From an uncultured virus (IMG/VR IMGVR_UViG_3300028364_000031) (taxonomy: Duplodnaviria > Heunggongvirae > Uroviricota > Caudoviricetes), in the IMG/VR virus record IMGVR_UViG_3300028364_000031: a DNA stretch of 64,000 nt; one strand, given 5' to 3'. Positions within the stretch are counted from its first letter, which is position 1; each line of letters starts with the position of its first letter. A program made the translations under genes and the position numbers. This document shows, one piece after another, positions 6,366-36,609 of this stretch. The notes below the pieces were generated by a model. That model worked only from the letters and a program-made list of their open reading frames with translations. It did not search any database and was not told the origin of the DNA.

Positions 6366-6419
6366 TAGAAAAATTCTTGACGATCAATAAATACCCATAA
6401 TCCAATAGAGTACACCATC

Positions 6420-6707
6420 ATGCTACTAGCAAAACTATTTGAATCAAACAACGACTTTAATAAGTCAGTACGTGCAGAAAATGAAAAACGTGCAAAAGAT
6501 AGAAAGATGAAACGCAAGCATGAATTGCGATCACGTAAACATAAAAGCAATTTACAATCAAAAGAAAATCTGGCACAGTTCGATAACCTTCAGCAGATGC
6601 GTAAAAAGGAATCTGATGAAAAGGTTGAACGGAATAAGGACAATTTGAAAACTGATAAAGTAGTCAATAGTGCTGATGCTCTTCAAAAAAGATTAGCCGA
6701 TAAGTGA
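6420..6707 (+). CDS. Basic late protein with CTS-like leader (MLLAKLFE)
   Basis: AATAAATA at 6386-6393; K/R-rich. Confidence 0.7.
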   Translation: MLLAKLFESNNDFNKSVRAENEKRAKDRKMKRKHELRSRKHKSNLQSKENLAQFDNLQQMRKKESDEKVERNKDNLKTDKVVNSADALQKRLADK

Positions 6708-6793
6708 AATAGTGCTTGACAGGTTGTAATTTTTCTGTATAATAGTACCTATAGAAACACAAACTTAAACAACAACCAACGGAGTAACAAATC

Positions 6794-7096
6794 ATGCTAA
6801 ATGCAATCAATTTTAATGGCACAGACTTTTCTCTGGACTCAGATGAAATAGAAGCCAATCTATTAGAAGCCCTGATCGACTGTGGTCAATCAGGTGACGT
6901 TTTACCACAAGTTCAATACGTCATTGCTAATTGGAGCATCACGGGCGATACAGATGATTGTAGAAAGTATCTGGCAGGATATGGCGCATGGGTTGATGAT
7001 GAACTGCTAGACCATACCACAAATCTTGAACGATTAGTGTGGCTAACAGGTTCAGCACTATTAGAAGATGAATCAGCATATTTCTCAACTTATTAA
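6794..7096 (+). CDS. Hypothetical acidic protein
   Basis: Repeat promoter and GGAG leader upstream. Confidence 0.85.
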   Translation: MLNAINFNGTDFSLDSDEIEANLLEALIDCGQSGDVLPQVQYVIANWSITGDTDDCRKYLAGYGAWVDDELLDHTTNLERLVWLTGSALLEDESAYFSTY

Positions 7097-7154
7097 ACTT
7101 GATACTTTGTAAATACTATGATGCCATATAACTTAATAACTAAGGAGTTCCAAA

Positions 7155-7535
7155 ATGTTTAAACTACTAGTAGCAATTACACTCTTAATCGTTTCAAGTG
7201 CATCCTTTGCCGAGAAATCATTGATGAATCAGCTTCAAAGTAAACCAGTCTGTGAAAGCCCATCAGGTTTTACTCTCGATACAGCGGGGGGTGTATGGAT
7301 GCCACAAGATTACTCACACCTACAACTTGAACAACCAAGCTCAACAATCGAATATCCAGATATGACAATCAACACCGTTACATTTGGATATGACAATAGA
7401 TTGTATGTCAATGGTAATCTAGTTGATACCTTCACCTGTGTGTTATATTTCAATGTCTCTATAATCGACTCACAAGAACTAGGTGTTGAAATCTATATGT
7501 ATGGCCATACCTTTTTTGTACGATTGGATATCTAA
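7155..7535 (+). CDS. Exported protein with Sec signal peptide
   Basis: MFKLLVAITLLIVSSASFA (S-x-A cleavage site); TAAGGAG RBS. Confidence 0.8.
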   Translation: MFKLLVAITLLIVSSASFAEKSLMNQLQSKPVCESPSGFTLDTAGGVWMPQDYSHLQLEQPSSTIEYPDMTINTVTFGYDNRLYVNGNLVDTFTCVLYFNVSIIDSQELGVEIYMYGHTFFVRLDI

Positions 7536-7735
7536 CATATAATACAACGCGCTTGGTAAACCAAAAAAGCCCTGAATGTTCAGGGCTTTTTTTATAACAT
7601 TATCATCCCTTTAACATATTATACTATTACTTGTCAAGTAATTTGTATATGAAAATAGTGCTTGACAGTAGATAATAAATGTGTATAATAAGAACTGTAG
7701 AAACACAAACTTAAACAACCAACAGGTGAAACATT

Positions 7736-8425
7736 ATGAATCAGAATACACTTACAGTTAAATTACTAAAACAGTATCATGCCTGTGCCATTGGTCTGGT
7801 AGAGCGCAACAACCTTGAGGGTTTTCCATTAGATCGCTTGGACGAAGTTCAAGGGAATTATAATTGTTATATTGAACAGCTTGAAGGGATTAAGGATTCG
7901 CTGCCAACATGCAAATTTGATGCCCAAGGGAATATGATCGAGCGGACAGATTTATATGGCTGCGTTATTATCTATGAATATGATACTCAAGGGCGTATGA
8001 TTAAGGAAACAAATGCAGAGGGAGATATTACTGCCTATGAATATGATACTCAAGGGCGTATGATTAAGGAAACAAATGCAGAGGGAGATATTACTGCCTA
8101 TGAACATGATGCCCAAGGGAATAAGATCAAAATAACATTTTCAAGTGGCGCTTTTAATACATTTGAATATGATGCCCAAGGGCATCTGATCAAAAAAACA
8201 TTTTCAAATGGCAATGTTCACAAATATGGATATGATGCCCAAGGGAATCAGATCAAACACACATCCCCAAATGGTGATGTTGATGCCTATGAATTTGATG
8301 GCTATGGGAATATGATCAAACAAACAAATTCAAAGGGTGCTGTTATTACATGGAAATATGAACATTATGAAGATGGACAATTGAAACGTCTGAATGACAT
8401 GATCATTCCGTGGTTTGAAAAGTAA
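7736..8425 (+). CDS. YD/RHS-like repeat protein
   Basis: Seven 21-aa YEYD..G..IK.T...G repeats; exact 63 bp duplication 7973-8035/8036-8098. Confidence 0.85.
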   Translation: MNQNTLTVKLLKQYHACAIGLVERNNLEGFPLDRLDEVQGNYNCYIEQLEGIKDSLPTCKFDAQGNMIERTDLYGCVIIYEYDTQGRMIKETNAEGDITAYEYDTQGRMIKETNAEGDITAYEHDAQGNKIKITFSSGAFNTFEYDAQGHLIKKTFSNGNVHKYGYDAQGNQIKHTSPNGDVDAYEFDGYGNMIKQTNSKGAVITWKYEHYEDGQLKRLNDMIIPWFEK

Positions 8426-8613
8426 AACGTAAAACCAAAAATGTCCTGATTATTCAGGGCATTTTTTATACACTTTTCATCCCTTTAGCATACTACACTA
8501 TCACTTGTCAACTAATTCATACACAAAAATACTGCTTGACAACCTATAACATTTCTGTATAATAGTACCTATAGAAACACAAACTTAAACAACAACCAAC
8601 GGAGTAACAGATT

Positions 8614-9069
8614 ATGAACATACAATTGGGATACGATGTACTAGATTCCAGAGATGTCATTGAAACAATTGATCAACTGGAATCAGAGCTGAAATTTTTA
8701 GTAGAGTACCACAAAGAACAACTGGAGTTGAAGATGGAGGGGGCTGAACGAACTGCCAGCGATATTAAATCCCTCAAGAGCCAAATTAAACCTTTGAGGG
8801 CATTTGCTGATGCCTTTATTGATATGATTGGTAGTGCATGGTATGACGGTGTTAGCCTAGTCAATGATGACTATTTTATCGAATACACCAAGGAATATTC
8901 GGATAATATCGGTAAAACTTCTGATGATGACTCGTGGCCATTCACTCATATTGATTGGAATTCAGCGGCGGATGCATTGCAGTATTATTTTAGTAGCGTT
9001 GACGTGGATGAACATAAGTATTGGACTGCCAAATTATTAAAGATGGATTTCCTGTGGTTGGAAAAGTAA
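8614..9069 (+). CDS. Acidic protein, possibly ArdA-like antirestriction
   Basis: C-terminal EY..EY.D...WPFTHIDWNSAADAL resembles the ArdA-like YIDYE..ARDL motif; weak. Confidence 0.5.
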   Translation: MNIQLGYDVLDSRDVIETIDQLESELKFLVEYHKEQLELKMEGAERTASDIKSLKSQIKPLRAFADAFIDMIGSAWYDGVSLVNDDYFIEYTKEYSDNIGKTSDDDSWPFTHIDWNSAADALQYYFSSVDVDEHKYWTAKLLKMDFLWLEK

Positions 9070-9250
9070 AACCTTAAAGGTTTATAGCCCTGATCATTCA
9101 GGGCTTTTTTTATAACACTATCATCCCTTTAACACACTACACTATCCCTTGTCAACTAATTTGTATATAAAAATAGTGCTTGACAGCATGTAATATTTCT
9201 GTATAATTAGAACTGTAGAAACACAAACTTAAACCACGGAGCAGTAAATT

Positions 9251-9793
9251 ATGAATCATACTTACAAAATTGAATTGCTACAACTTTTAGATCAACTAAA
9301 AAACGATGCAAAGGTAATGTATGGGTTTAACAAATACATTGACCTGACCTTTAAAAATCTTGGTATGCACGGTGGATGGGCTAAAGTTGTTGATCGTATG
9401 TATGCTATCGAAATCAATAATCAATTACTATGTGAAAAATACCTTGACGAGGCTAAAGATACTCTAATCCATGAGTTTGCTCATATTGTGTGTTTTTGGG
9501 ATAGATCATTAGGACGCAACCACAATAAAGGTTGGAAAAAAGTCTGTAGAGCATTAGGTGGCACTGGCAACCGTTGCCACTCAGTACCCCTTAAACCTAA
9601 GCGTAAAACCCGTGTGGCAATCTATAACGTGCCTACACCAAACGGTAATGTAACAATGCCAATTGGTTTGATCGTACACGGTAAAATTAATAAAGGTCAA
9701 AATAGATGGCTAATTGCATGTCGATCAAAAATCTTACCGGAACATTTTACCGGAAAAATAATGCTCAAATCAGAATACAAAAATACTGCTTGA
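9251..9793 (+). CDS. SprT-like zinc metalloprotease
   Basis: DTLIHEFAH, HNKGWK.VC..LGG...RCH motifs. Confidence 0.88.
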   Translation: MNHTYKIELLQLLDQLKNDAKVMYGFNKYIDLTFKNLGMHGGWAKVVDRMYAIEINNQLLCEKYLDEAKDTLIHEFAHIVCFWDRSLGRNHNKGWKKVCRALGGTGNRCHSVPLKPKRKTRVAIYNVPTPNGNVTMPIGLIVHGKINKGQNRWLIACRSKILPEHFTGKIMLKSEYKNTA

Positions 9794-9852
9794 CAGTAAA
9801 TAATATTTCTGTATAATAGTACCTATAGAAACTTAAACCACGGAGCAAGATT

Positions 9853-10182
9853 ATGGAAGCTTTTTCTATTCCAGATGAACTACTAGATGAAATTGGACTT
9901 GACGTACCCACACTGGCCAACTGGCGTGGATTGGACGAATACGATAAACAGTGTGATGAATTTATTGATACTCTAAAAAAGTATATTCTTACTCTGGAAG
10001 TTCGCCCGAAACATACTGGCAAAATACTATCACTTCCATTCGCGGATGGCTACGCCCAATATATGTTTGTGGATTGTAAAGAGTATGGTAAGTATTTACT
10101 CCATTTACCATTAGGTGATGCGTATCACGATCCATTAGTGTATAATTTATCAGTCCGAGAAGTGTTGAAGCGTATCAAATAA
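9853..10182 (+). CDS. Hypothetical protein
   Basis: ADGYAQY/LHLPLGDAY; repeat promoter/RBS upstream. Confidence 0.85.
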   Translation: MEAFSIPDELLDEIGLDVPTLANWRGLDEYDKQCDEFIDTLKKYILTLEVRPKHTGKILSLPFADGYAQYMFVDCKEYGKYLLHLPLGDAYHDPLVYNLSVREVLKRIK

Positions 10183-10359
10183 CAAACAAGTTTATAGCCC
10201 TGATCATTCAGGGCTTTTTTTATAACACTATCATCCCTTTAACACACTACACTATCACTTGTCAACTAATTCATATACAAAAATACTGCTTGACGGTAGG
10301 GAATACATGTGTATAATAAGAACTATAGAAAACTTAAACAACCAATGGAGTAACATATT

Positions 10360-10564
10360 ATGATGTATTTGAACGACGAATACCCTAAACATCTTGAAAA
10401 AATACGAGACCGGTTTGATGATAAATTTGAAACTATGGGAAGGTGATTTACATTTTGATATGTTCATAGGCTGTACTGCTACTGCAACATCTAAGCAAGA
10501 GCATGATGACTCGGATAACGGGTATCTATAACCTCAAACATCATTAGCACCGGCAACACGTTAA
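10360..10564 (+). pseudogene. Probable broken cassette gene; 3' part homologous to the C-terminus of 13397..13702
   Basis: Full promoter/RBS but only 28 codons from ATG 10360; the other frame reads ...HDDSDNGYL*PQTSLAP vs ...NDDSNDDVSKHLSPQTSLAP. Confidence 0.55.
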
Positions 10565-10792
10565 GCAACACGTTAAGCAACACGTTAAGTAACACGTTAA
10601 GCATTGCATTAAGTAACACGTTAAGCAACACGTTAAGTAACACGTTAAGCAACACGTTAAGTAACACGTTAAGCATTGCATTAAGTAACACGTTAAGCAA
10701 CACGTTAAGTAACACGTTAAGCAACACGTTAAGCAACACGTTAAGTAACACGTTAAGCAACACGTTAAGCAACACGTTAAGCAACACGTTAA
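10553..10792. repeat. Tandem repeat, 20 x 12 bp (G[C/T]AACACGTTAA; units 5 and 11 are GCATTGCATTAA)
   Basis: Counted directly. Confidence 0.98.
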
Positions 10793-10923
10793 GCTTACTC
10801 TAAGTGTCTCTCAGAGCGTACTAGTATACACAAGGCATTACGCATGCGTTAGGGGTTAATTGCCCTTGACATTATATAATTTTCATGTATAATAGAATCA
10901 ACAATCAAAAAGGAAATACAAAA

Positions 10924-11262
10924 ATGTTTAAAGTATTTGCAGTAGACCACGCCAGCTCTATTCATGGAGATAATAATGAGGTTAACTTCATATTATGTGA
11001 AGATGCCCCAGATGCTGTAGACTTGGCTATTCATGACCCTGAACTGTATCAATTACATCTTTATGAAGAAGATGTCATAATTACCGAATTACCATACCAT
11101 ATTGCAGTGCATTTAGATCAATACAATCTATCTCGTGCTGCAAACCGGGATGCCACCTTATTCAATATTGTAAATCTTGCCACCAAAGAAAAACGTAAAG
11201 CGTACTTAGATCAGTATGATGAAGAATATGATGTGTCAAACCGATATTACCTCAGATATTAA
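10924..11262 (+). CDS. Hypothetical protein
   Basis: TTGACA 10866/TATAAT; AAGGA RBS before ATG 10924. Confidence 0.8.
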   Translation: MFKVFAVDHASSIHGDNNEVNFILCEDAPDAVDLAIHDPELYQLHLYEEDVIITELPYHIAVHLDQYNLSRAANRDATLFNIVNLATKEKRKAYLDQYDEEYDVSNRYYLRY

Positions 11263-11550
11263 TATCTAAAATAGATTGACATTTCAACTCACAACGATAA
11301 CACAAAAAGGGCTTGGTGTCAAGCCCTTTTTTTACATTCATTTCAACTTTTAACCCTTCCATCTTACACTAAAAAACTTAAATGACAAGGGCGACAACTG
11401 ACATAAAACTAAATGATATTATCATCCCTTTACCACAAGTCATTGCGGCGTGTCAAGTAATTTGTATATAAAAATAATGCTTGACACTGTGTAATAAATG
11501 TGTATAATGGAAACCATAGAAACTTAAACAACCAAAAAGGAAACACGATT

Positions 11551-11802
11551 ATGATGTATTTTGCACTAGGTACTGATGGCGTTATGTACGACTTAGGTGA
11601 TTGTGAGGATTTTGCAGCAGCAAAGGACGCTGCGGGGAATTTAAAGGTCGGTGTGATATGGCTGGCTGATAGAGCCGCTGCATTTGCATGGACTGATAGG
11701 ACTCTAAAGTCCATCTTGGGTGATAAAGCCGCTGCATTGGCATGGACTGATAGGATTCTTCGGTCATGTACGAACATCGAGCACGCCATTGGCATGGACT
11801 GA
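11551..11802 (+). CDS. Hypothetical protein with internal imperfect repeats
   Basis: GCATGGACTGATAG-containing ~52 bp unit occurs three times, 11668-11839. Confidence 0.65.
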   Translation: MMYFALGTDGVMYDLGDCEDFAAAKDAAGNLKVGVIWLADRAAAFAWTDRTLKSILGDKAAALAWTDRILRSCTNIEHAIGMD

Positions 11803-12072
11803 TAGTATTCTTCAGTCATGTGCGAACATCGAGCACGCCGAGATAAATATAGTGGATCAGCAGTAGTTACTTATAGAAAGTAAAACCTTAAAGGTTTATA
11901 GCCCTTCACCCGAAGGGCTTTTTTATAACATTATCATCCCTTTACCACAAGTCATTGTGGCGTGTCAAGTAATTTGTATATAAAAATAATGCTTGACACT
12001 GTGTAATAAATGTGTATAATTAGAACAGTATTTCTGTATAATTAAATCATTAAATAACCATAAGGTAATAAC

Positions 12073-12624
12073 ATGAAAACTTTGAAAAACATTGCGTTCT
12101 TTATTCTTTTAACCATCGTGATCAATTATGTAGGGTTCACCATTTTGTTTGAACCGGTGAACGCTTCACAGATCACTTCTAAGCCCTTAACCCTTGAACC
12201 AGTCTCATTGTATGAAGGCGGTGGCAAAACGGTGTCTGAGGCTGGCCTACAATGCCTTACTGAGAATATCTTCCATGAAGCTAGAAGTGAATCAGATCGT
12301 GGAAAATTTGCTGTAGCGTATGTTACCATCAACCGATTATTATCAACACATTACCCCGATAAATTATGTGATGTTGTTTATGAACCTTATCAATTCTCAT
12401 GGACAGTTGAACCACAAAAAGTTAAGCATAACAGTATAGAATCACAAGCATGGAATAATGCTTATAAGGTAGCATTGTCAGCTCTCTCGACAGGTGTACC
12501 AGATTCTTTAGTACATGTCACACATTTTCATACCGATCAGGTTCAACCGAACTGGTCGAAAAGTAGCAAGTACAAAAAGATTGCACAAATTGATTCACAC
12601 ATTTTTTATCGTCCTACCTATTGA
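12073..12624 (+). CDS. Cell wall hydrolase, SleB/Hydrolase_2 family, N-terminal membrane anchor
   Basis: CLTENIFHEARSE..RG..AVAYVTINR, CDVVYEPYQFSW, THFH, P.WS, IDSHIFY. Confidence 0.92.
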   Translation: MKTLKNIAFFILLTIVINYVGFTILFEPVNASQITSKPLTLEPVSLYEGGGKTVSEAGLQCLTENIFHEARSESDRGKFAVAYVTINRLLSTHYPDKLCDVVYEPYQFSWTVEPQKVKHNSIESQAWNNAYKVALSALSTGVPDSLVHVTHFHTDQVQPNWSKSSKYKKIAQIDSHIFYRPTY

Positions 12625-12691
12625 CAACCTATAATAAATCTGTATAATAGTACCTATAGAAACTAAACAACAACCAACGGAGTAACAGATT

Positions 12692-12973
12692 ATGAAGTAT
12701 TTCCACGTAAAATTGAATACAGTGAATATGTATATGGACATCTACGGACAAACTCGCACCCATTTTGTTGCGGCTGAAGATGAAAAAGAGGCTTGGATCA
12801 AGGCCGCTGATGAAGAAGCACTCAACACAGTTGAGTGGAATGATGAATTCGCACTAGATGGATCAATGGAAGTACCAATGATCTATTCCCTTGCCAGTGT
12901 CGCTGAAATCACTCAAGAAGACGTGCGAGCACTTCACCGAATGGGAATCATTGACTGGACAGTAACAGCTTAA
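12692..12973 (+). CDS. Hypothetical protein, paralog of 5663..5926
   Basis: Shared sequence and leader. Confidence 0.88.
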   Translation: MKYFHVKLNTVNMYMDIYGQTRTHFVAAEDEKEAWIKAADEEALNTVEWNDEFALDGSMEVPMIYSLASVAEITQEDVRALHRMGIIDWTVTA

Positions 12974-13155
12974 ACAACCAACGTCACTACTTAAAAATGC
13001 CCTGAACATTCAGGGCATTTTTTATAACACTATCATCCCTTTACCACAAGTCATTGGGGCATGTCAAGTAATTTGTATATAAAAATAATACTTGACAGCC
13101 AGTAACATTTATGTATAATAGTACATATAGAAACTTAAACCACGGAGAAACAAAC

Positions 13156-13392
13156 ATGAACTTATATATGATCACACGACCAAACGGATTAATTGATTAC
13201 GACGAAGCCGAAGAAATGGTTATCGCTGCCAATTCAGAAAATGAATGTAGAACACTGGCAACCACAAAAGCCGGTGATGAAGGCAAGGCCACATGGCTTG
13301 ACCCTAAAATAACATTGTGCGTAAACATTGGCACAGCTAACGACACCATTACAAATCCAATGGTACTGTGCCGTGACTATTTTGAAGCGTGA
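13156..13392 (+). CDS. Hypothetical protein
   Basis: CCACGGAG RBS before ATG 13156. Confidence 0.8.
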   Translation: MNLYMITRPNGLIDYDEAEEMVIAANSENECRTLATTKAGDEGKATWLDPKITLCVNIGTANDTITNPMVLCRDYFEA

Positions 13393-13396
13393 TGAT

Positions 13397-13702
13397 ATGA
13401 ACAACATAACTAAACACGGCCCATCAGTTCAACAGGAACGTAGTACTAAGGGTGAGTTGATTCATGAACCCTATTGGCTGCATGGTAGATCATATAATGT
13501 ACGAGGCCCGGCTGTTTATGCGGGACGTGGTGCAATGAAAGAACTTATAGCAGAGATGGAAGCGTTGGAAGCTTGGGGAGAAGAAGAATTGCTGTTCATT
13601 ATGGGAATAGGTGACCATCCTCCTATTACCTCTAAAACCAATGATGACTCCAATGACGATGTAAGTAAACATCTATCACCCCAAACATCATTGGCACCTT
13701 GA
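13397..13702 (+). CDS. Mosaic hypothetical protein
   Basis: GELIHEPYWLHG..YNVRGPA is a degenerate copy of the 3272..3625 repeat; C-terminus matches 10418-10552. Confidence 0.55.
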   Translation: MNNITKHGPSVQQERSTKGELIHEPYWLHGRSYNVRGPAVYAGRGAMKELIAEMEALEAWGEEELLFIMGIGDHPPITSKTNDDSNDDVSKHLSPQTSLAP

Positions 13703-13760
13703 CAACAATACTAATTCAATGATATACTTAACCTAAGTTAATACAAATAGGAACTCAATC

Positions 13761-13976
13761 ATGTTGGTAACGAATAAAGATATCGAGTATCAAGCAGCAC
13801 CGTACCATGGCATCATCGCTACCATTCCTAAAGGTACACCCGTTACTCTTGCCACTAACATAGATAGCACTGATGAATACTGGGTAGGTCGATGGGAAGG
13901 GATGTCAGACATTGCTATGAGTTGGAAACGTAACTACGGCTTCCTAGTCTCTGATGAAGATGTAACCAAAGGATAA
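13761..13976 (+). CDS. Hypothetical protein
   Basis: TTGACA 13699..TATACT promoter, AGGA RBS. Confidence 0.75.
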   Translation: MLVTNKDIEYQAAPYHGIIATIPKGTPVTLATNIDSTDEYWVGRWEGMSDIAMSWKRNYGFLVSDEDVTKG

Positions 13977-13982
13977 CATACT

Positions 13983-14043
13983 ACTATACCATACGATCAT
14001 AACACTGTCAACCCTTGACAGTACCATAGGAGTAGGGTATACT
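13983..14043. promoter_or_regulatory. Back-to-back sigma70 promoters
   Basis: Minus: TTGACA(14011-14006)-N17-TATAGT; plus: TTGACA(14015-14020)-N17-TATACT. Confidence 0.75.
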
Positions 14044-14340
14044 TACAGTAGGGTAAAGGATACCAGAGTATACCATAGGGTACACACCCCCCCTACCCAA
14101 AAACTGAAAACATGTTTGGGATATTTTTTCTATATAAAACAATAAAAATATATGACCCCATGGGGGGTGCTAAGACAAGGAAATGTATATATACAATTGT
14201 TTTTAATTTCAGAAGTCTTTGTGTGGGAAACTGTGTATAGGTTTGGTTATATGGTATGGAGGTAGTATAGTATGTAAATGGTGATAGTACAGTTAAAATT
14301 TTTTTGGTAATTTTTTTTTATAGGGTAATAGGGTATAATA

Positions 14341-14637
14341 ATGAATGATGATAAAGATCGTATAATGGTGGTGTTACCTCGTGGTAATCCTTGTGGTGTA
14401 CTTGAGGGTATTAGTGCTGGTTTAATAATGAATGATACTGTAGTGTCTGTGGAGTCAGAAGAGTATCGAAAGAATCAGGAACGTGAAAAGCGTGAAGACC
14501 TTGCGTTTTTACAAGGTAGTGAAGCGTATCGAGGTGGTATAGCGGTAACAGATATACCGTATGATTTAGTAGACGTTGAATATTACTATTGGCGTTATGG
14601 ATGGTTTAGTGAAAGTGAAAAGGGGGAACAATTATGA
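14341..14637 (+). CDS. Hypothetical protein
   Basis: ATGA overlap with next gene. Confidence 0.65.
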   Translation: MNDDKDRIMVVLPRGNPCGVLEGISAGLIMNDTVVSVESEEYRKNQEREKREDLAFLQGSEAYRGGIAVTDIPYDLVDVEYYYWRYGWFSESEKGEQL

Positions 14638-16994: not shown

Positions 16995-17345
16995 ATGAAT
17001 GACGATGATGATTTGAAAACTATGATCGACCCGATGATCTCGATTGGTGCTGCTGATGGTATAACTAATATTAAACCTAACCTTGGGGACACGACTATTA
17101 GTTCTACGGGGAAAATATCAATATATGATGGTATATCATGGCTGGATGGCAATAATATTAGTACTGATGCTATACTACACCCTATTCATCAAGAAGCAGC
17201 ACAAGAACCAGCATTGGTGTTGGAGCAGATTGCAGATTTAGATCAATTGAGTTTAGATGAGTATCTAATTAAGTACGGAGAGGATGCGGAGCTTGAGGCA
17301 TCTACCCTTGCACTTAACTATTTGAATAGTGATAGTATTGTATAA
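16995..17345 (+). CDS. Hypothetical acidic protein
   Basis: GGAG RBS. Confidence 0.7.
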   Translation: MNDDDDLKTMIDPMISIGAADGITNIKPNLGDTTISSTGKISIYDGISWLDGNNISTDAILHPIHQEAAQEPALVLEQIADLDQLSLDEYLIKYGEDAELEASTLALNYLNSDSIV

Positions 17346-17348
17346 ATA
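17341..17348 (+). promoter_or_regulatory. T4-type late promoter TATAAATA
   Basis: Exact consensus 25 nt before ATG 17374; same motif at 21657, 31031, 32532, 51365 (+) and 51245-51252 (-); variants at 6386, 33639, 35799-35804 (-), 49802-49809 (-). Confidence 0.85.
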
Positions 17349-17373: not shown

Positions 17374-18237
17374 ATGAGGGTATTAGAAGTATTACGTGAG
17401 GCACCGATAGCTGACATATCCCATGTTGGAGATTTTTCAAAGAACAGTTCATTTCGTCATGGTAGGGATCGAGCGGTTGTTACGCATCCTGCATCTATAG
17501 AGAATATCAAGAAGAAGTTTGGTAATACTAATCAGGACATTAATTTAATATTTGTTAACACGCCACAGGGTGGTCGTGAGACGGAGGTTGGTGAGGTAGG
17601 GATGAAATATGTTATACAGAATTTAGGTGAGGAGGTAGCAAAGGTTGTTAACAAGGTGCATACTGGTAATGAGATAACGGTAATTTTGACAAATAATAAG
17701 GGCGAGCAGAGGTTTCATATGACTCCATGGATCATAGCTCATAGGATGATGCACGTGTTTGCTAGGAAGGGTGTAGTGCGTAGTACTGGTAGTAATAGTA
17801 GTAGAGTGTATGGTGAGTTCAAGCGCCAGATGATTAATATATTTTTGACTGATATTATGCCAGCGTATGGACGCAGTAACATGGGTAATCCTGATAGGGT
17901 AAATTATGCAGGTGGACAAGATCGAAATGCTCAATTAGTATTCAAGCATTTTTTCACAAAGGTGTGTACTTTTAAATCGGCTAGGGATAATAAGTTACGA
18001 GACTGGTTTGAGGTATTCAATGAGTTGGGTGCTCAATATATTACGACTGGTAATGTTAAGTTTAATGAATTACCTCAGAGTTTTGGTACAACGGCAACCG
18101 GAGTAATGCATTTACGTAGCGATGATCGTCATGCCGTGGAGCATGCTTCTGATCAGTTAGATATGCTTTCACGGGATGCGGAGATCATGGTAGATGATCT
18201 ATTAGGTTCTGCTCTTGGAAATATATTTGTAATGTGA
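17374..18237 (+). CDS. Late hypothetical protein with CTS-like leader (MRVLEVLRE-AP); possible zincin-like HxxxH
   Basis: TATAAATA upstream; TPWIIAHRMMH. Confidence 0.8.
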   Translation: MRVLEVLREAPIADISHVGDFSKNSSFRHGRDRAVVTHPASIENIKKKFGNTNQDINLIFVNTPQGGRETEVGEVGMKYVIQNLGEEVAKVVNKVHTGNEITVILTNNKGEQRFHMTPWIIAHRMMHVFARKGVVRSTGSNSSRVYGEFKRQMINIFLTDIMPAYGRSNMGNPDRVNYAGGQDRNAQLVFKHFFTKVCTFKSARDNKLRDWFEVFNELGAQYITTGNVKFNELPQSFGTTATGVMHLRSDDRHAVEHASDQLDMLSRDAEIMVDDLLGSALGNIFVM

Positions 18238-18247
18238 TGATGCAACG

Positions 18248-18652
18248 ATGAAAATTAATAAAATTTTAAAATTGATTGAGGGCTTCGAAGATATTGATTA
18301 TCTATTGGAATCCATTGAACAGTTTTCTAATAGTGTTAGGGAGCGGTTAGGTATTGCTCAGTTTTCTCTATATGAGAAGGGTGATGATATCTATTTGAAC
18401 ACTATCATTGTCGGGAAGGAGAATCAAGGGAAGGGTTTAGGTTCTAAAGCGATGGAGATGCTTATTAACTATGCTGATCGTTCTGGAAAGAGGCTTATAT
18501 TAACCCCTGCTGTGCAGGATAAAATACACGGTACTACTTCTAGAGCTAGGTTGGTTAGGTTCTACAAGCAATTCGGCTTTAAGGAGAGCAAGGGTAGAAA
18601 CATCGATTATGAAATTGGTGCTGGTAAGATGTATAGAGAGCCTACCCAGTAA
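18248..18652 (+). CDS. GNAT family acetyltransferase with CTS-like leader
   Basis: IIV...QGKGLGSKAM acetyl-CoA motif; LVRFYKQFGF. Confidence 0.88.
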   Translation: MKINKILKLIEGFEDIDYLLESIEQFSNSVRERLGIAQFSLYEKGDDIYLNTIIVGKENQGKGLGSKAMEMLINYADRSGKRLILTPAVQDKIHGTTSRARLVRFYKQFGFKESKGRNIDYEIGAGKMYREPTQ

Positions 18653-21380: not shown

Positions 21381-21665
21381 TTGAAGTTATTGAACAAAAT
21401 AATCCGTGAAGTGCCTGACAAGGAATTAGGTGATGATTACTATCAAATGTATAACCAGCAGAAAATATATGGAGGGGGAACGGATATCGGTATTTTAGCT
21501 ACGGTTCCAAAGAAGGTTGATTCTACTCCTGTCAAATTTTATATTGGTATGACCAAATATCCCAACAAAGTATCCCATACATTTACTACGGGTGAGAGTG
21601 GTGATCCGGTACCCCGCGTAGATGAATTGTTTAAATTGATATTTGGGCGATCTTCATATAAATAG
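21381..21665 (+). CDS. Hypothetical protein with CTS-like leader (MKLLNKIIRE)
   Basis: GAGGAGG RBS before TTG start. Confidence 0.7.
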   Translation: MKLLNKIIREVPDKELGDDYYQMYNQQKIYGGGTDIGILATVPKKVDSTPVKFYIGMTKYPNKVSHTFTTGESGDPVPRVDELFKLIFGRSSYK

Positions 21666-22022: not shown

Positions 22023-22733
22023 ATGGAAATTCAAAAACTACTAGAGCTAATTGAACCAGAAGTTAAAAGTTACAACATGAAAAATCGTCGCTTTGATCAA
22101 CGATCTTCTAGTGCTGATGTAAATCCACATGTATTAGATGACGATGAAAGAGAAAAAGGATATGTGGGTGCGGGGTTCTACTCCGTGGTTAAAAAGGATA
22201 GAGACCCACACTTTGTACAAAAAACTAGTAGAGATGCTAAACGTGCGCCCACCGATGGATATTGGTTCTTTATAAAGCGTGTAGTGGATAACAAGCTTTG
22301 GGAAAATCCATATTTTCCAAGAGTGTATCAATTCAAAAAGTTTTATAAGGGTAGCCAAGCCCATTACCGGGTAAAACTGGAAACATTAACCGAAATTGAA
22401 CTGTTAAGAAAAGATGAACTATTGACAATATTAAACCGTATGGTTGGTCAAGATGTTGAAGATATTGGGATGGTCCAAGATCGCATGAAGGCTTACGATG
22501 TTTGTGAATTGATTGTCGAGGTTATGAAGAATGTATGGGACGATTCGGTTTCAGGTCGCAATGCAGAAAAGCTCGACACTAATTTAGTATCTGCTATGAG
22601 AGAATTGAAAAAGATGGGTGGCAACAATTTCAGTTATGACCTTCACAAGGCTAACGTCATGGCTCGTCGTGGCCCACACGGACTTCACCCTGTAATCATA
22701 GACCCGTTCGGTGCTACCAAATATAAAAATTAA
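22023..22733 (+). CDS. Protein kinase-like protein with CTS-like leader
   Basis: VGAGFYSVV Gly loop, catalytic DLHKANVM, IIDP. Confidence 0.78.
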   Translation: MEIQKLLELIEPEVKSYNMKNRRFDQRSSSADVNPHVLDDDEREKGYVGAGFYSVVKKDRDPHFVQKTSRDAKRAPTDGYWFFIKRVVDNKLWENPYFPRVYQFKKFYKGSQAHYRVKLETLTEIELLRKDELLTILNRMVGQDVEDIGMVQDRMKAYDVCELIVEVMKNVWDDSVSGRNAEKLDTNLVSAMRELKKMGGNNFSYDLHKANVMARRGPHGLHPVIIDPFGATKYKN

Positions 22734-28363: not shown

Positions 28364-28744
28364 TCAGTTTACACTTTCGAAGATTTTCTGTGCCTTATTT
28401 ACTGTATTGCTAAAGCTTTCCATCAATTCCTCTCTAAACTCGTTTCCTTCTTGGACTAAAACATTAGCCTGTTTGATATTTTTTTGCTTTTCTTCAAGCT
28501 TTTGGGCACTGTCAGCACTTTCAATAAGCTGCTTTGCGCTCTTCAATGTTTCTGAAACTCTCTTGAAGCCTGACTTCAGATCAGAGTCATCAACATTTAC
28601 TTGCTCGTTCAATGTGCTAAATTCGTTTTTGTAAAGTGCCAAGTCTTGCTTAGATTCTCTAAGAAGAGAATTGTACATTTTCTTAACAGTCTTAACGTTA
28701 TTGTGGATTTTATTTTCGACTAACAGTTCGTGGATTATGCTCAT
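28364..28744 (-). CDS. Coiled-coil protein with CTS-like leader (MSIIHELLVE)
   Basis: Coupled to upstream acidic gene. Confidence 0.75.
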   Translation of the reverse strand: MSIIHELLVENKIHNNVKTVKKMYNSLLRESKQDLALYKNEFSTLNEQVNVDDSDLKSGFKRVSETLKSAKQLIESADSAQKLEEKQKNIKQANVLVQEGNEFREELMESFSNTVNKAQKIFESVN

Positions 28745-29199
28745 TATTCGTTACCTCTTTTATTGAAAACATCAAAATCAAATTCTTCATCATCTTCACT
28801 GTCATCATCTTCACCATCCAGTTCTAGGTCAGATAGGGAGGGACTGAAGGTTTCTTCATCATCATCACCCATATCGTTACCATCTTGATCTAGTCCTAAC
28901 ATACTGCGAAGTTTGTCAGTAATATCTACTCTCTTTTCACCAGCAAAGGATTCTTCATCCTCATCGCCCATGCCAAGTTCTCCATGGTCGCCGTGTTCAT
29001 CGTCGTCACCCATACCATCCATGTCGTGATCGCCTATACCATCTTCTTCGCCATCTGCGCCACTGAAGTCTATGTCGCCACGGTCATCATCCTCACCTTC
29101 ATCGTCGTTACCAAAAGAAAATTCATTTCTTTCTTCATCCTCGTCAGTATTTGAGAACTTGATATCGAATTCTTTTAAAATGTTTGTTAGTTCGCCCAT
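28744..29199 (-). CDS. Extremely acidic low-complexity protein with CTS-like leader (MGELTNILKE)
   Basis: D/E/G-rich throughout. Confidence 0.78.
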   Translation of the reverse strand: MGELTNILKEFDIKFSNTDEDEERNEFSFGNDDEGEDDDRGDIDFSGADGEEDGIGDHDMDGMGDDDEHGDHGELGMGDEDEESFAGEKRVDITDKLRSMLGLDQDGNDMGDDDEETFSPSLSDLELDGEDDDSEDDEEFDFDVFNKRGNE

Positions 29200-29312
29200 T
29201 GTTGCTACCTTGCAATTTCCATACTATTTATATATTCCGATTAACAGTTGAAACATTTGACTTAACTGCACCAAGTCCCTAATATTCATGGGTAGATAAA
29301 AAAGGAGATACC

Positions 29313-30362: not shown

Positions 30363-30366
30363 TCAA

Positions 30367-30690: not shown

Positions 30691-31023
30691 TTAACTCCAC
30701 ATGCGGAATGGGTTTGAGCTATTGGCTTGACCCAGTTCCCACCTCTTATCGATATACTGCTCTTGCTCTGTTATTTCATTGATCATTGCAGCCTCATCCC
30801 ACTCTTCGGGTGACGTATCCCAACATAGTGTAACGTTTCTCACTATACCATTTTCTTCATCGAACTGGTAGAAAAATGATACCCCACCCAAGGAAGTTCT
30901 GTTATTTTTATCTTGTCTTTTCTGCTCATACATTGCCTTCTTCGAGAGAAAATTGTTTACCAACAGGGTAATGTGTGAAACCTTTTTTGATTGTTCTGCG
31001 GTTAAAAGCTTTACTTGTTCCAT
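30691..31023 (-). CDS. Hypothetical protein
   Basis: 110 aa ORF filling the gap. Confidence 0.65.
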   Translation of the reverse strand: MEQVKLLTAEQSKKVSHITLLVNNFLSKKAMYEQKRQDKNNRTSLGGVSFFYQFDEENGIVRNVTLCWDTSPEEWDEAAMINEITEQEQYIDKRWELGQANSSNPFRMWS

Positions 31024-31061
31024 TTTGAATTATAAATATCGTTATATAATGTTATTTATCC

Positions 31062-31697
31062 ATGAACTTTTTAAAAGAACTTCAATTATTTGAATCAGAG
31101 AAAGCGGCACAGAAAGAGATTCAGTATTCTATTGATACTGTCAACGAGCTTTATAACGAGTGGAAAAAGGTTAAAAGGCGTATCAATGCTGTTAACATTG
31201 TTTCTACAACTGCTAACAAACTGTCTACCATATCACCTGCCATAATCAATAGGGTCCACGAGACGACTAGATTAAAAGCTGCTACACTTATTATGCGATG
31301 CTTAGATGCTCCCTATTGGAAACCTTTATCAGAAAAAGCTAATGTTTACAAAAAGTTATCTCCACTTCTGGGTGCATTAGAAGATTATGATGTTAGAACC
31401 GGTAATGGTTCTACGCTTAAACAAGCAGTGTTAACTAGAATGGGTGCAGCGTATAGTTTTCAAAACAGATTGGAGGATGGTTCCATTGTATTTGTGGCCT
31501 ACGATCCAAAGATAACTCCCAGTTATTTGAAATATCTTTTTGGAAATGAGGATAAGTTTGTAGTACAAACCTACAAGATGCAAATTCTTGGGATGCCCCA
31601 AGAATTTGCATCTCTTATAGATTTAATAAAGATTAACCACGAGAAAGGGGTTCAGAAATACAAAGCTTCTGGTGACAAAGTTAAACAATCGTCATAA
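31062..31697 (+). CDS. Late protein with CTS-like leader (MNFLKELQLFE)
   Basis: TATAAATA 31031-31038. Confidence 0.78.
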   Translation: MNFLKELQLFESEKAAQKEIQYSIDTVNELYNEWKKVKRRINAVNIVSTTANKLSTISPAIINRVHETTRLKAATLIMRCLDAPYWKPLSEKANVYKKLSPLLGALEDYDVRTGNGSTLKQAVLTRMGAAYSFQNRLEDGSIVFVAYDPKITPSYLKYLFGNEDKFVVQTYKMQILGMPQEFASLIDLIKINHEKGVQKYKASGDKVKQSS

Positions 31698-32566: not shown

Positions 32567-33295
32567 ATGAAAAGTCAAAACGAAAATAGTGGGTTTGGTA
32601 GAGTATTCCGCGAAGATGAAAGAGATAATAACTTTTTAGTCCGAGATATCATATCTATGGATACATTACCACCCATTGAAAAAAAGTTTTGGTGGGCTGA
32701 AGGGTGGCAAGGTGATCAAGGAAGGACACCAGAATGTGTGGTTTATAGCTGGTCACACTGGTTAGAGGATGGCCCAGTAATCCAAAATGTTATACCGGGT
32801 AGACCAAAACCAATGTTTGATACTACAGAATTGTATAATAAATGTCAACGCTGGGATGACATTCCCGGAACCCGATATGAAGGAACCACTGTGCGAGCCG
32901 GTGCTAAAATTCTACAAAAGCTTGGTTTAATTGATGAATATAGATGGGCGAGAACAGTGGATGAAGTTATAGCCTCTGTGACTCACCTTGGGCCTATGGT
33001 TGTTGGAACTGAATGGTTCGAAAACATGTCTAGGCCAACCAGTCACCGTCACATCTTAAGACCGTCAGGAAAGTCTAATGGTGGCCATGCGTACCTATTG
33101 AATGGTGTAGACACTACCAAAGAACTGTTCAGAATTAAAAACTCGTGGGGCACTAACTGGGGTGATCGAGGTCATGCATATATAAGCTTCAATAATTTTG
33201 AAAAGCTTCTTAACCGTCATGGTGAAGCGTGTGTCGCTTTCGAAAACAAAGCTTCTACAGTTCCCATTCTTGAAAGCCTAGAAGACCCTTCATAG
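32567..33295 (+). CDS. Papain-like cysteine peptidase (C1 family), late
   Basis: DQG.TPEC, GGHAY, KNSWG..WG..G; TATAAATA 32532. Confidence 0.9.
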   Translation: MKSQNENSGFGRVFREDERDNNFLVRDIISMDTLPPIEKKFWWAEGWQGDQGRTPECVVYSWSHWLEDGPVIQNVIPGRPKPMFDTTELYNKCQRWDDIPGTRYEGTTVRAGAKILQKLGLIDEYRWARTVDEVIASVTHLGPMVVGTEWFENMSRPTSHRHILRPSGKSNGGHAYLLNGVDTTKELFRIKNSWGTNWGDRGHAYISFNNFEKLLNRHGEACVAFENKASTVPILESLEDPS

Positions 33296-33604
33296 TTCAT
33301 AATCAAAGAGTTCATCCTCTTTATGTAAGAGGATGCATAGTTCAGCCAAGATATCCCCATGGCATGCTTTGGGTTTACAAAAGCAGCCTAGTGTTTTACC
33401 TTGGAGGGCTTTAACCTCGGTTCGATACTCTTCATCCAGTTCAGCTTTAGAATATGCATACTCCTTGAACCCGTCTATTTTTTCTTTGCGTGTGCCATCT
33501 TGCACAGGGTTTCCAAAGTATCCGTCCTGTCCCTTACCGGCCCTACCAATATACACATCGTAGTCATCACCTGATTTTATATTAATAACTTTTGGTCTTT
33601 CCAT
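33290..33604 (-). CDS. DUF4326-like protein
   Basis: DVYIGR..FGNP..LGCFCKPKACHGDIL. Confidence 0.85.
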   Translation of the reverse strand: MERPKVINIKSGDDYDVYIGRAGKGQDGYFGNPVQDGTRKEKIDGFKEYAYSKAELDEEYRTEVKALQGKTLGCFCKPKACHGDILAELCILLHKEDELFDYEL

Positions 33605-33671
33605 AAACTAATAATACTGGTTTGACTATCACTAGTCAAATAAATAGTTAGAATTAAAGATTAACCCAATC

Positions 33672-33887
33672 ATGAGAATAGAAACCATCATGGAAATAAG
33701 TGACAGCTTTGTTCGTGCATATCAATCGTATAAAAACCTTTTAAAGCGAAAAGATGAGCACGAATCTGAAGATTTACTCTTAACCAGAGTTGCTTTAATG
33801 TTTGGTATTGATAGTATTAAAAAGTTTAAAATGTTTGTTATGAATAAAGAAAAGAATGAAGAACGTATTGATCCATACAACTATTGA
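33672..33887 (+). CDS. Small late protein with CTS-like leader (MRIETIME)
   Basis: AATAAATA 33639-33646. Confidence 0.65.
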   Translation: MRIETIMEISDSFVRAYQSYKNLLKRKDEHESEDLLLTRVALMFGIDSIKKFKMFVMNKEKNEERIDPYNY

Positions 33888-33907
33888 AACTTTCGTTGTG
33901 AAAACTA

Positions 33908-34186
33908 ATGCCAGCTAAAATTAGAAGACTTTATTTTGAGCCGTTAAAGGGTAAGTACCACGCATTATTCATTGGACAAAACATTAAATCGTTTTATACT
34001 GAGGGGGAGTTTAGTTCACCTGTAGATATTGAGCATTTACAAGATTCTGTGAACCTGTTGATTGAAGTGTTTGATAAAGACGGGACTCAAGTCTTTGTGG
34101 ATAGAGTAACGATAATTGATAGGGATAATGTGCGAGTTGAATTTTTAGAAGACTTTGTGGGAAAGATTCATCTAATTATTTTTTAA
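33908..34186 (+). CDS. Hypothetical protein (possible virion beta-domain)
   Basis: IEHLQDS..IEVFD..G....D.V.I.D.DNV.V.F pattern. Confidence 0.65.
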   Translation: MPAKIRRLYFEPLKGKYHALFIGQNIKSFYTEGEFSSPVDIEHLQDSVNLLIEVFDKDGTQVFVDRVTIIDRDNVRVEFLEDFVGKIHLIIF

Positions 34187-34189
34187 AAC

Positions 34190-34265
34190 TGGTGCCGAAG
34201 GCTGGGATCGAACCAGCGACCTCATCATTACCAATGATGCGCTCTGCCAACTGAGCTACGACGGC
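34190..34265 (-). tRNA. tRNA-Thr(GGT)
   Basis: Cloverleaf, loop TT-GGT-AA, encoded CCA; two acceptor-stem mismatches. Confidence 0.9.
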
Positions 34266-34272
34266 TAAAAAT

Positions 34273-34347
34273 TGAAGACGGGAGTGGGATTCGAACCCAC
34301 GTAAACTGGTTTTGCAGACCAGCGCCTAACCACTCGGCCATCCCGTC
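34273..34347 (-). tRNA. tRNA-Cys(GCA)
   Basis: Cloverleaf, loop CT-GCA-AA, U73, ends TCA rather than CCA. Confidence 0.92.
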
Positions 34348-34355
34348 AATGGTAT

Positions 34356-34694
34356 TTACCAATAATATTCCTGTGGTCTTTTATTTAGAGGAAGTTCATA
34401 AGCATCCCAATCTTCATAATCTATGAGTTTGGTAATATTCTTAAGAGCAGCTTTCTCTTTTCTCCTATTCGGTACAACCACGAATTCGTGATGGAACTTA
34501 TTAGGTTCTTTTGACCACTTTGAGTAGTGCAATTCTAGGTCGTCTTCTCTCAACCCAAGAGAGTGTAGGTATTCATAGTTCCTTCTTTTGAAGTTATTAC
34601 TCCATCTACACTCACTTGCAAAAAACATACTCATCTTTACATTTAAGTTATCTTTTCTTGTGTTAGACATAATGATTTCTCCTGTTAGCGTCAA
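34356..34694 (-). CDS. Hypothetical protein
   Basis: AGGAG before MSNTRK (likely start ~34670). Confidence 0.7.
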   Translation of the reverse strand: MTLTGEIIMSNTRKDNLNVKMSMFFASECRWSNNFKRRNYEYLHSLGLREDDLELHYSKWSKEPNKFHHEFVVVPNRRKEKAALKNITKLIDYEDWDAYELPLNKRPQEYYW

Positions 34695-35105
34695 CTAATG
34701 GTCATCATATTTGCCTTTAAATTTCCTATTCATATACATATTCCTTATTTTAATTAATGTTCTGATCTCGGTTCTGGCTCTGTTGTATAGTTGCGTACTG
34801 CGCGTTTACCCGTATCATCAAATTCTGTTACTTCTCTTGTATAAAAAGTACTCTCTTTCCACTGTCATTATATTCGCTATTATAAGTGCGTATAGTGCCG
34901 TAGGCATCTATCTCGGTTTTATCCCCATCTACATTAGTGGTATCGTATACACTAGTGTTGGACAACGTGTGAATCCACAAGTATGTCAGTAGTGTTACTA
35001 TTGAGGCCGCTATAATTAAAATCGAAATAGGTTCCATTTGCTATTCTCCAAAAGTTGAACCCAGTATATCAATCAAATTAATATAAGTCAACCCCACCAC
35101 TACTT

Positions 35106-35771
35106 TTAACGACTATACAGTGATGTATAAATCTCCTCGGATAGTCCCAGATCGATGATGACTGGACGATTATTAAATACTCCCCAGTTGGCGGGGCGTA
35201 GTAGGTCTGGTAAGTGTAGTTCACAGTTTCCTACAAAGGATACGAAATCGTATGAAAAACTTTCTTCATTTTCCCAAACCTTTTGAGTCCATTCTTTTTC
35301 AAATTCCATTCTATGAGAGGCCGGTAGACTTCTATTGTGAGTAAGGTTACCAGCATAGTTAATAAGTTTTTCCATATTAAATCCCGACAACTGTTCAAAC
35401 TGTTGCTCATTTTTTAGTTTGGGGGCGTATTCTACATGTAGCCATGAAGGTTTATCAGCGGTTTCATCGTAGTCTATCATGGGAATGGTAACGCTACCGT
35501 CTGCATGTAGAGCTTGGGCGGTATAGAGCATGTAGCGCTCTTGTTCATTTTGGGCTAGACCTTTATTATTTTTAGCAATTTTAAGAACGGTTTTTCTTCC
35601 TTGGTATTCTACTATGAATGCTATTCTGGAGCTTCCTGCTCCAATTTTTTGAGCTTTTTGTTTAGCGTATTCTATACGGGCTTTGAATCCCCCTTTGTTA
35701 CCTTTATTGTATACTGATTTATCCCAATCGTCAGGTAGTGGTGCTTCTCGTAATATGTCACTAATTTTCAT
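35106..35771 (-). CDS. Protein kinase-like protein with CTS-like leader (MKISDILRE-AP)
   Basis: IGAGSSRIAF, VLKIA, QNEQE, DLLRPANWG, IIDLG; TAAATA ~28 nt upstream. Confidence 0.8.
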   Translation of the reverse strand: MKISDILREAPLPDDWDKSVYNKGNKGGFKARIEYAKQKAQKIGAGSSRIAFIVEYQGRKTVLKIAKNNKGLAQNEQERYMLYTAQALHADGSVTIPMIDYDETADKPSWLHVEYAPKLKNEQQFEQLSGFNMEKLINYAGNLTHNRSLPASHRMEFEKEWTQKVWENEESFSYDFVSFVGNCELHLPDLLRPANWGVFNNRPVIIDLGLSEEIYTSLYSR

Positions 35772-35775
35772 ATCG

Positions 35776-36609
35776 CTACTTCTTCTTTGCTGTCTTCTTA
35801 TTTACCGCTTTTTTCACAACAGTTTTCTTTTTATTGGATTTTTTCTTACGTGCAACTTTCTCTGGTTGCGGTGATAGTTGAATTGCCTTTTCACGCTCTT
35901 GTTGTAGTAGATGATCCCGTATGTACCAATCATATATTGGGAGTTCTGGAGAAAACCTATGTACTGAAAAATGAAATATTAGAACTTCAGCATTATCGTC
36001 CCATTCTGTGAACTCTTCAAAACTGCGATCCCAGCGTTTTTTAAATCTCCAAAACTCTCTAGGTTTGGTTGCAAACTCTTTAGTAATATCTTCATCATCT
36101 TTAGACGGATGTAACTCTGGTATAATTCCAGATTTCACGAGTTCAGATTTCGTTACAGCTTTTAATTTTTTGCTGTCAATATTTAGACATTCAAAACCAT
36201 ATCGAGCCATTGCCTTGCTCATGTCCGTATCTGGTTTCCAGTTGAAGTCTTTCAAACTGTGATCAGAATGATATGCAACATAAGTATCTTGTACAATGGC
36301 ATGTTTTTCTGGTAACCAATAGGTTTCCTTTTGTTCAATTTTGGTAGCCCCCGGATAATTTTTGGGGACAATATAAAGTCTAGTTTCTTTTGAATACCTA
36401 TACATGATGTGACACATGAAGGTATAGTCCAATTCAATTGGCAACTTTTTTCTAAAGTCTGACATTATTTTCCTTAATTTGGCGGAAGGCCGAGGTCTTG
36501 ATCCCCATGCGGCTACCCGCACCTTTCGATTAGCAATCGAAGCCAGTACCCCGACTGGTTGACCTTCCATTATTTTATTTAGTTTACCTGAATAGTTTGT
36601 TCGCGTCAA
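35776..36609 (-). CDS. Hypothetical protein, possibly ASCH/PUA-like, with Lys-rich tail
   Basis: KETYW..WKP..M....AR..F..RWD..WDDN.EV.IFHF pattern. Confidence 0.55.
   Translation of the reverse strand: MTRTNYSGKLNKIMEGQPVGVLASIANRKVRVAAWGSRPRPSAKLRKIMSDFRKKLPIELDYTFMCHIMYRYSKETRLYIVPKNYPGATKIEQKETYWLPEKHAIVQDTYVAYHSDHSLKDFNWKPDTDMSKAMARYGFECLNIDSKKLKAVTKSELVKSGIIPELHPSKDDEDITKEFATKPREFWRFKKRWDRSFEEFTEWDDNAEVLIFHFSVHRFSPELPIYDWYIRDHLLQQEREKAIQLSPQPEKVARKKKSNKKKTVVKKAVNKKTAKKK

Follow-up and report, generated by a model that had tools for sequence, protein, structure and literature searches.

We investigated a short N-terminal leader carried by ten predicted proteins of an uncultured tailed phage (Caudoviricetes), encoded in the first 64 kb of the IMG/VR record IMGVR_UViG_3300028364_000031, a linear sequence of 71,772 bases estimated to be 37% complete. 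This whole stretch of 64,000 nucleotides is called the window; its curated set comprises 111 genes, which are named here by the coordinate of their first base. An original prediction had proposed that ten unrelated genes, mostly in units headed by TAAATA late promoters, share a leader resembling the capsid-targeting sequence (CTS) of phage T4, and that their products are loaded into the head, cut by a protease and injected as effectors. At least eight late-unit genes carry a real leader, with the consensus MK[IL]xx[IL]LxE, i.e. a hydrophobic-x-x-hydrophobic core ending in [LIM]-x-E. Sequence comparison indicates that the leader is a selected, portable signal that persists across unrelated protein families, and it is highly probable that it targets proteins to the head and is cleaved there. 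By gene content and relatives, the phage is placed among the jumbo phages of the T4 superfamily: XacN1 (first 320 kb) matches 19 of the 111 window genes and G002, a 270-kb IMG/VR record, matches 33.

As a regular expression built on the ten leaders is circular for the window, the leader score was trained on homologs of the kinase gene 35771 alone, using 97 distinct leaders. Upstream of the site, two hydrophobic residues spaced three apart could be parsed in 97 of 98 distinct training leaders. Seven of the ten leader genes scored at least 8. With gene 35771 excluded, this score was reached by 6 of 21 late-unit genes, a set that includes 8 downstream genes assigned by hand, versus 1 of 89 others (p = 1.6e-4); the enrichment among TAAATA genes that the original prediction had named as a check was thus observed. 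Nor is the motif equally common in early genes, as none of the 18 genes of the early-promoter block scored 4 or more. Internal sequence windows reached a score of 8 in 0.5% of 20,000 draws. Gene 23488, encoding an AAA ATPase, scored 8.7 without a TAAATA site and was treated as chance, because about 0.55 such scores are expected in 111 genes. Gene 31062 was kept as a member despite a score of 4.6, because its homologs in XacN1 (MKLFQELILHE) and G002 (MKLFKEFSLME) retain both the leader and the TAAATA site. Genes 6420 and 21381 are weak members and could well be chance. A search reaching close relatives only found no relatives of 21381, 6420 or 33672.

All ten open reading frames were recovered with the N-termini read originally, and nine of them lie in TAAATA units, from which late expression is predicted. 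Six have their own TAAATA site 23-27 nt upstream: gene 6420 (6420..6707, + strand; 95-aa basic protein, MLLAKLFE, score −1.8, the weakest of the ten; site at 6388..6393, +, 26 nt before it), gene 17374 (17374..18237, +; 287 aa, MRVLEVLRE then AP, score 14.6; site at 17343..17348, +, 25 nt), gene 29199 (28744..29199, −; 151 aa, MGELTNILKE, score 8.6; site at 29225..29230, −, 25 nt), gene 31062 (31062..31697, +; 211-aa conserved protein, MNFLKELQLFE; site at 31033..31038, +, 23 nt), gene 33672 (33672..33887, +; 71 aa, MRIETIME, score 8.1; site at 33641..33646, +, 25 nt) and gene 35771 (35106..35771, −; MKISDILRE then APLP, score 21.8; site at 35799..35804, −, 27 nt before it and within the end of the upstream gene). 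Three others are second genes of such units: gene 18248 (18248..18652, +; MKINKILKLIE, score 14.6) after 17374, gene 28744 (28364..28744, −; 126 aa, MSIIHELLVE, score 12.5) after 29199, and gene 22023 (22023..22733, +; MEIQKLLELIE, of the MKIQ/MEIQ-x-L-L-E type, score 12.1) after the leaderless gene 21694, whose site at 21659..21664 (+, 29 nt before it) likely drives 22023 too. The promoter link fails for gene 21381 (21381..21665, +; 94 aa, KLLNKIIRE, score 4.5), a doubtful member with a TTG start, a strong Shine-Dalgarno sequence and no TAAATA site. The window contains no excess of TAAATA sites (65 versus 93.6 expected), so that only its position is informative, and the leader is absent from eight window genes with their own TAAATA. 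A TAAATA gene at 30691-31023 (−) starts with MEQVKLLTAE, its G002 homolog with MSTFKTLTEE, and may be a degenerate eleventh member. A papain-family C1 peptidase gene at 32567-33295 (+), with homologs in XacN1 and G002, has TAAATA upstream and no leader.

The site and its position relative to the mature domain are conserved in homolog families. In the 35771 family, for which 119 of 318 homologs found were listed, a glutamate directly precedes the conserved domain start in 115 of the 119, and the residue two before it is L in 96, I in 17 and M in 2, while leader length varies; some homologs carry T4-style MKSFKQFLxE leaders. Residues 1-9 of the 35771 structure model have a predicted local distance difference test score (pLDDT) below 50. 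Among 80 IMG/VR kinase loci, 57 of them distinct after removal of 8 unparsed and 15 duplicates, [LIM]xE precedes the domain in 51 of the 57, several kinases being the last module of a chain joined through the same linker. At several of these loci, TAAATA lies merely 2-8 nt before the start codon instead of about 25 nt. The 22023 family has [LIM]xE by residue 12 in 19 of 20 homologs, and 9 of 20 homologs of GNAT 18248 score at least 8. In the 17374 family the domain start was located in 146 of the 150 sequences listed from 866 representatives; [LIMV]xE marks the domain boundary in 105 of 113 members that stand alone and in 31 of 33 that are fused, compared with 3.5% at arbitrary points, although the query contained the leader and may favour leader-bearing matches somewhat. 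In the fusions, whose partners are GNAT, SprT-like and poly(A)-polymerase-like domains, the motif lies 60-500 residues inside the protein as an internal linker. Distant 35771 homologs in CBB, RaK2 and Munch (E 2e-6 to 1e-5) have neither leader nor TAAATA. The one in CBB, CBB_444, is absent from the table of 55 CBB virion proteins (PMC5259590); leaderless and outside the virion table, it was counted in favour of head loading, as weak evidence since it is an absence.

The cultured relative Atu_ph07 served as a blind test, with the score and the plan fixed beforehand. All 140 rows of its virion Table S5 (PMC6102473) were used, where the paper counts 131 at its thresholds; all 140 could be mapped by mass and position, 138 of them among 808 gene calls (714 genes are annotated in the paper). 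At a score of at least 10, 11 of 13 genes were in the virion table versus 127 of 795 others (p = 1.5e-7), and 10 of 13 when only rows with at least 2 peptides were taken (p = 4e-7). The fraction was 11/16 at scores of at least 8 (p = 5e-6), 12/20 at 6 and 13/27 at 4. Many leader proteins were represented by 10-31 peptides. The GNAT 18248 matches the N-terminal third of Atu_ph07 gp63 (40% over residues 19-132, E = 1.8e-16), which starts with MRLFQLLE and has 13 peptides in the table. In a Pfam scan of 13 hand-chosen Atu_ph07 virion proteins, six of which gave no match, a zeta-toxin-type kinase (gp53) and an amidoligase (gp196) were found on leader-bearing proteins, and, below the Pfam cut-off, a GNAT in gp63 and an ADP-ribosyltransferase (ART) in gp381. 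A post hoc pattern admitting tryptophan matched 21 Atu_ph07 genes, 20 of them in the table, about ten being the tandem paralogs gp53-62. The tryptophan leader, M[RK]W[EQH]QL[TN]E, is carried by about a dozen hypothetical virion proteins (gp53-62, gp381, gp408, gp482). By eye, a YRG...S...E pattern is common to gp53-56, gp408 and the second half of gp63, which suggests an ADP-ribosyltransferase-like fold.

In PA5oct, with 445 annotated coding sequences, the 93 marked in GenBank as detected by electrospray tandem mass spectrometry (ESI-MS/MS) were taken as the virion list. Assignment by table mass had failed, the masses being off by up to several percent. A fixed matrix placed 4 of 6 leader genes in this list (p = 0.019), and the final score at a threshold of 8 gave 7/14 versus 86/431 (p = 0.013), a test that was not blind because the form of the score was chosen after the regular-expression and matrix results. 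In PA5oct the leader also occurs on the gene between the protease and the major capsid protein, which by its position resembles a scaffold gene. Its product is missing from the virion list, in keeping with a core protein that is broken down.

A gp21-type protease (Peptidase_S77) was found in all four related records, G001-G004, and not on the phage's own fragment, which is 37% complete. In G001 and G002 the protease begins with ...TLIE. The capsid gene contains an L-x-E near its start, and the gene preceding it encodes about 315 residues with 24 (G001) or 22 (G002) [LI]xE sites; the two are taken to be capsid and scaffold genes from their position and from usual gene orders rather than from a family scan. 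T4 gp21 has LIE-9, similar to the start of the G001 and G002 proteases (PMC9026906). G002 has leader-bearing homologs of 28744, 29199, 31062, 22023 and 35771, and the leader is associated with late units in G002 (10/13, p = 8e-5), Slickus01 (10/12, p = 5e-5) and XacN1 (4/8, p = 0.04). Slickus01, whose host is Alishewanella, also encodes a homolog of 35771 with the leader.

The kinase and GNAT labels given originally hold by Pfam, PHROG, conserved residues and structure matches. The model of 35771 (pLDDT 91.7) gave 205 Foldseek matches at E ≤ 0.001, the rows listed being protein and small-molecule kinases with TM scores of 0.28-0.44, and G44, G46, K64, E78, N195, D207 and G209 are invariant. 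This protein is predicted to have a protein-kinase fold with catalytic residues, and its substrate may be a protein or a small molecule. The T7-kinase-like 22023 matches PHROG 15752 (E = 3.6e-5, 12 of 18 family members), with G51, K67, D206, N211 and D227-P228 invariant. Its kinase match spans residues 42-232 of 236. The 22023 profile found nothing in Atu_ph07, XacN1, Munch, CBB or RaK2; as it misses the Munch homolog of T7 kinase, 22023 is regarded as a branch apart from that protein, and the two kinases as separate families, because their profiles do not align significantly. Gene 18248 encodes a GNAT acetyltransferase by Pfam.

The 17374 product has H123-R124-x-x-H127, E213 and E217 invariant in 95 sequences, HRxxH standing in place of HExxH with its catalytic glutamate, which is not present. 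Its model (pLDDT 93) had PPEP-3 as best VIA match, a weak one (Z 3.8, root-mean-square deviation 4.9, 149 aligned), with no Z of at least 5 among 48,161 VIA chains; the Atlas zincin lead is weak too, and no Pfam, PHROG or PDB sequence match was obtained. The predicted model thus offers no more than a lead to a zincin-like metal site, one that lacks the usual catalytic glutamate. The 28744 product has 8 [LI]xE sites in 126 aa (6.3 per 100 residues versus a genome mean of 1.2), and that of 29199 is very acidic, with a net charge of −52. By analogy, both look more like T4 core or scaffold proteins than effectors. The proposal that all ten are effectors is thus not supported as it stood, given also the weak membership of 6420 and 21381. 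For 31062 an Atlas feature match to the C-terminal family of the proteasome activator PA28 (PA28_C; 0.90, 200/256 features, 10/10 consistent) was not confirmed by Pfam on three homologs.

These data together make it likely that the leader attaches to the prohead core, that a gp21-type protease cuts it, that core-like proteins are degraded and that folded enzymes are ejected with the DNA. The leader itself would cause loading by docking the newly made protein onto the core, and the phage protease would probably cut after its glutamate, as in T4, freeing a mature protein whose first residue lies at the boundary of the conserved domain (cut between E and APLP, API or S). Site-rich proteins (28744, perhaps 29199) would be core filler and be cut up. 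The folded kinases 22023 and 35771, the GNAT 18248 and the zincin-like 17374 would survive, be ejected together with the DNA, and modify host proteins by phosphorylation or acetylation ahead of phage gene expression. As relatives link the same modules into polyproteins by way of this site, a single leader would bring in several enzymes. Head loading with a gp21-type cut site, as in T4 and as originally proposed, is well supported, if indirectly, by Atu_ph07, more weakly by PA5oct, and by gp63, the fusions and the protease of relatives. Action of the cargo specifically on defence systems, suggested by analogy with T4 Ip1-3 and the T7 kinase, is rather doubtful.

Several results weigh against loading and injection. 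Profile searches recovered homologs of neither kinase in Atu_ph07 and none of 35771 in PA5oct, and hence no kinase is shown in any virion. The peptide positions of the gp63 fusion are not in the table, so that its GNAT part itself may be undetected. Leader proteins were not lighter on the Atu_ph07 gel (5/30 versus 11/85, p = 0.76), where a loss of 1 kDa is invisible. In PA5oct a loose regular expression gave no enrichment (8/30 versus 85/415, p = 0.48). The promoter link is absent in G001 (4/10, p = 0.5), and TAAATA lies 15-40 nt upstream in only 13 of the 57 distinct kinase loci. PHROG and protease-family scans found no head genes on the phage's own 72-kb fragment. Finally, when Atu_ph07 genes that have a TAAATA site of their own are compared, the virion table includes 6 of 6 with a leader and 41 of 67 without (p = 0.08), so that the leader is not separated from plain lateness. 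This last comparison, the 61% of leaderless TAAATA genes found in the table and the purification of the Atu_ph07 stock by polyethylene glycol would fit a motif that is a cut site alone, used to activate late cytoplasmic proteins or to destroy them at a set time, their presence in virions being due to late abundance and co-purification. We regard this as improbable. The hydrophobic pair upstream is conserved as well as the site, the peptide counts of many leader proteins are high, and gp21 acts within proheads. Moreover, the pair matches T4 residues 4 and 7, which govern targeting and not cutting (PMC9026906).

It is also conceivable, though unlikely, that the leader loads the head and the cargo then works in the particle or in assembly, as core filler, in DNA binding or by modifying virion proteins, with little effect in the next host. 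The core-like composition of 28744 and 29199 agrees with this, as do the leaders on scaffold-like genes and on the small gene after the portal in PA5oct and Atu_ph07, and T4 core proteins are cut into fragments (PMC9026906). The kinases and GNATs, however, depend on ATP or acetyl-CoA and would thus be expected to act in the cytoplasm, and the leader-bearing Atu_ph07 virion domains (kinase, amidoligase, GNAT, ART) are classed as conflict effectors in PMC5512222. That the leader is chance, or a by-product of A/T-rich starts on late mRNAs without a Shine-Dalgarno sequence, is very improbable. A Shine-Dalgarno-like site occurs in only 2 of the 10 leader genes, and the two weakest members would fit chance, yet the 13 other late-unit genes mostly lack such a site too (2/13 have it) and are leaderless. 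The [LIMV]xE motif is moreover kept deep in the fusions, where translation start plays no part, and for the strong members the fusion-internal sites largely refute this explanation, on sequence grounds.

The surroundings of the leader genes were recorded as well. At 38-14637 lie widely spaced small genes, most of them preceded by a recurring early promoter with a leader sequence (GTATAAT...TAGAAAC...ACGGAG), and the gene at 1173 in this block encodes an ArdC-like anti-restriction protein (PHROG 7245, E 5e-76). An intergenic array of tandem 12-nt repeats at 10491-10787 (−), reading (LNVL)n, may be origin-like or regulatory. A 700-aa protein encoded at 38439-40541 (−; PHROG 33734), conserved in XacN1 and G002, presumably resembles TerD-type stress proteins. 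At 45777-52119 stand four large late genes, of the tail-fibre or decoration type, within which 49814-51217 has 42-48% identity to proteins of the Syn5 gp52/53 region and of Maribacter phage Panino, and glycosyltransferases, a methyltransferase and a UDP-glucose dehydrogenase at 55636-60052 possibly serve virion or surface glycosylation. Three sequencing runs contained at least half of a test stretch; all are metagenomes of lake water, and two of them may be the source. No RNA dataset was listed as containing the leader-gene region.

In the literature searched, which left most subscription journals outside and did return T4 CTS and T7 kinase work, no description of the leader in RaK2/XacN1/Atu_ph07-like phages was found; the portions drawn on further include PMC12373910, PMC7824862, PMC7247149, PMC7318152 and, for XacN1, which has the kinase ORF170, PMC5852040. 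What appears new here, from sequence comparison, is the extension of a T4-CTS-like tag to jumbo phages and to enzyme cargo; the contribution of the window is that measured virion proteomes could serve as a check and that the predicted cargo includes two kinases. More tentatively, RaK2/XacN1/Atu_ph07-like jumbo phages may possess a general tag and protease-linker system for any enzyme, by which a promiscuous T7-kinase-like kinase, a second kinase and an acetyltransferase would here be injected and defences disabled before transcription. A packaged relative of the T7 kinase would act before any gene expression, which is not described in the portions of the literature searched. If true, the tag would allow the set of proteins injected by an uncultured phage to be predicted from its sequence. 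The virion proteins of these jumbo phages are mostly listed as hypothetical, and the performance of the tag on Atu_ph07 turns the question of injected proteins into a list checkable on cultured phages and in existing spectra. The tag could also load foreign proteins into heads much larger than that of T4.

The T4 leader given in the original prediction reads MKTYQEFIAE; this string does not occur in the text of PMC3012670. Like the T4 CTS, borne by IPI, IPII, IPIII and the Alt propeptide and removed by gp21, the leader is an N-terminal peptide of about ten residues on unrelated proteins, with a hydrophobic pair three residues apart, a terminal [LI]-x-E, a predicted late promoter and a gp21-type protease in the clade. 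It differs in its consensus and in its genes, which are scattered, whereas those of T4 lie in two loci; the predicted cargo consists of kinases, a GNAT and a zincin-like protein, that of T4 of small restriction inhibitors; and in relatives of this phage, unlike T4, modules are chained into polyproteins. The T4 tag was tested by fusions, while the leader is known from sequence and from the virion lists of relatives. By these likenesses the leader would work like the T4 CTS, and the mature proteins are not members of the internal protein or Alt families, no IPI-III or Alt match being found in PHROG or Pfam for any of the ten.

The T7 kinase gp0.7 (T7K) is an early gene product, whereas 22023 lies in a late unit and has a leader. 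According to a recent study, T7K disarms many defences (PMC13645617). All 20 of the 22023 homologs have DP at the DFG position, as in the DPV motif of T7K that is linked to promiscuity (PMC13645617). T7K has a C-terminal DNA-binding shut-off domain; the 236 aa of 22023 hold the kinase domain only, with no room for it, and the T7K homologs of jumbophages likewise lack it (PMC13645617). In phiKZ and SPN3US, head ejection proteins are also cut after glutamate by a gp21 homolog (PMC5694885), but the propeptides are mostly longer than 100 residues, the motif is A-x-E and the phage group is different. The polyvalent and MuF-linked effectors of Iyer et al. 2017 (PMC5512222) comprise the same enzyme classes, i.e. 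kinase, GNAT, ART and zincin-like peptidase, and their injection along with the DNA is likewise predicted. Pfam gave no MuF or LPD domain on the ten proteins, and, compared with polyvalent proteins, the predicted cargo here is made up mainly of single-domain genes or short chains, with a ten-residue leader and protease-type linkers.

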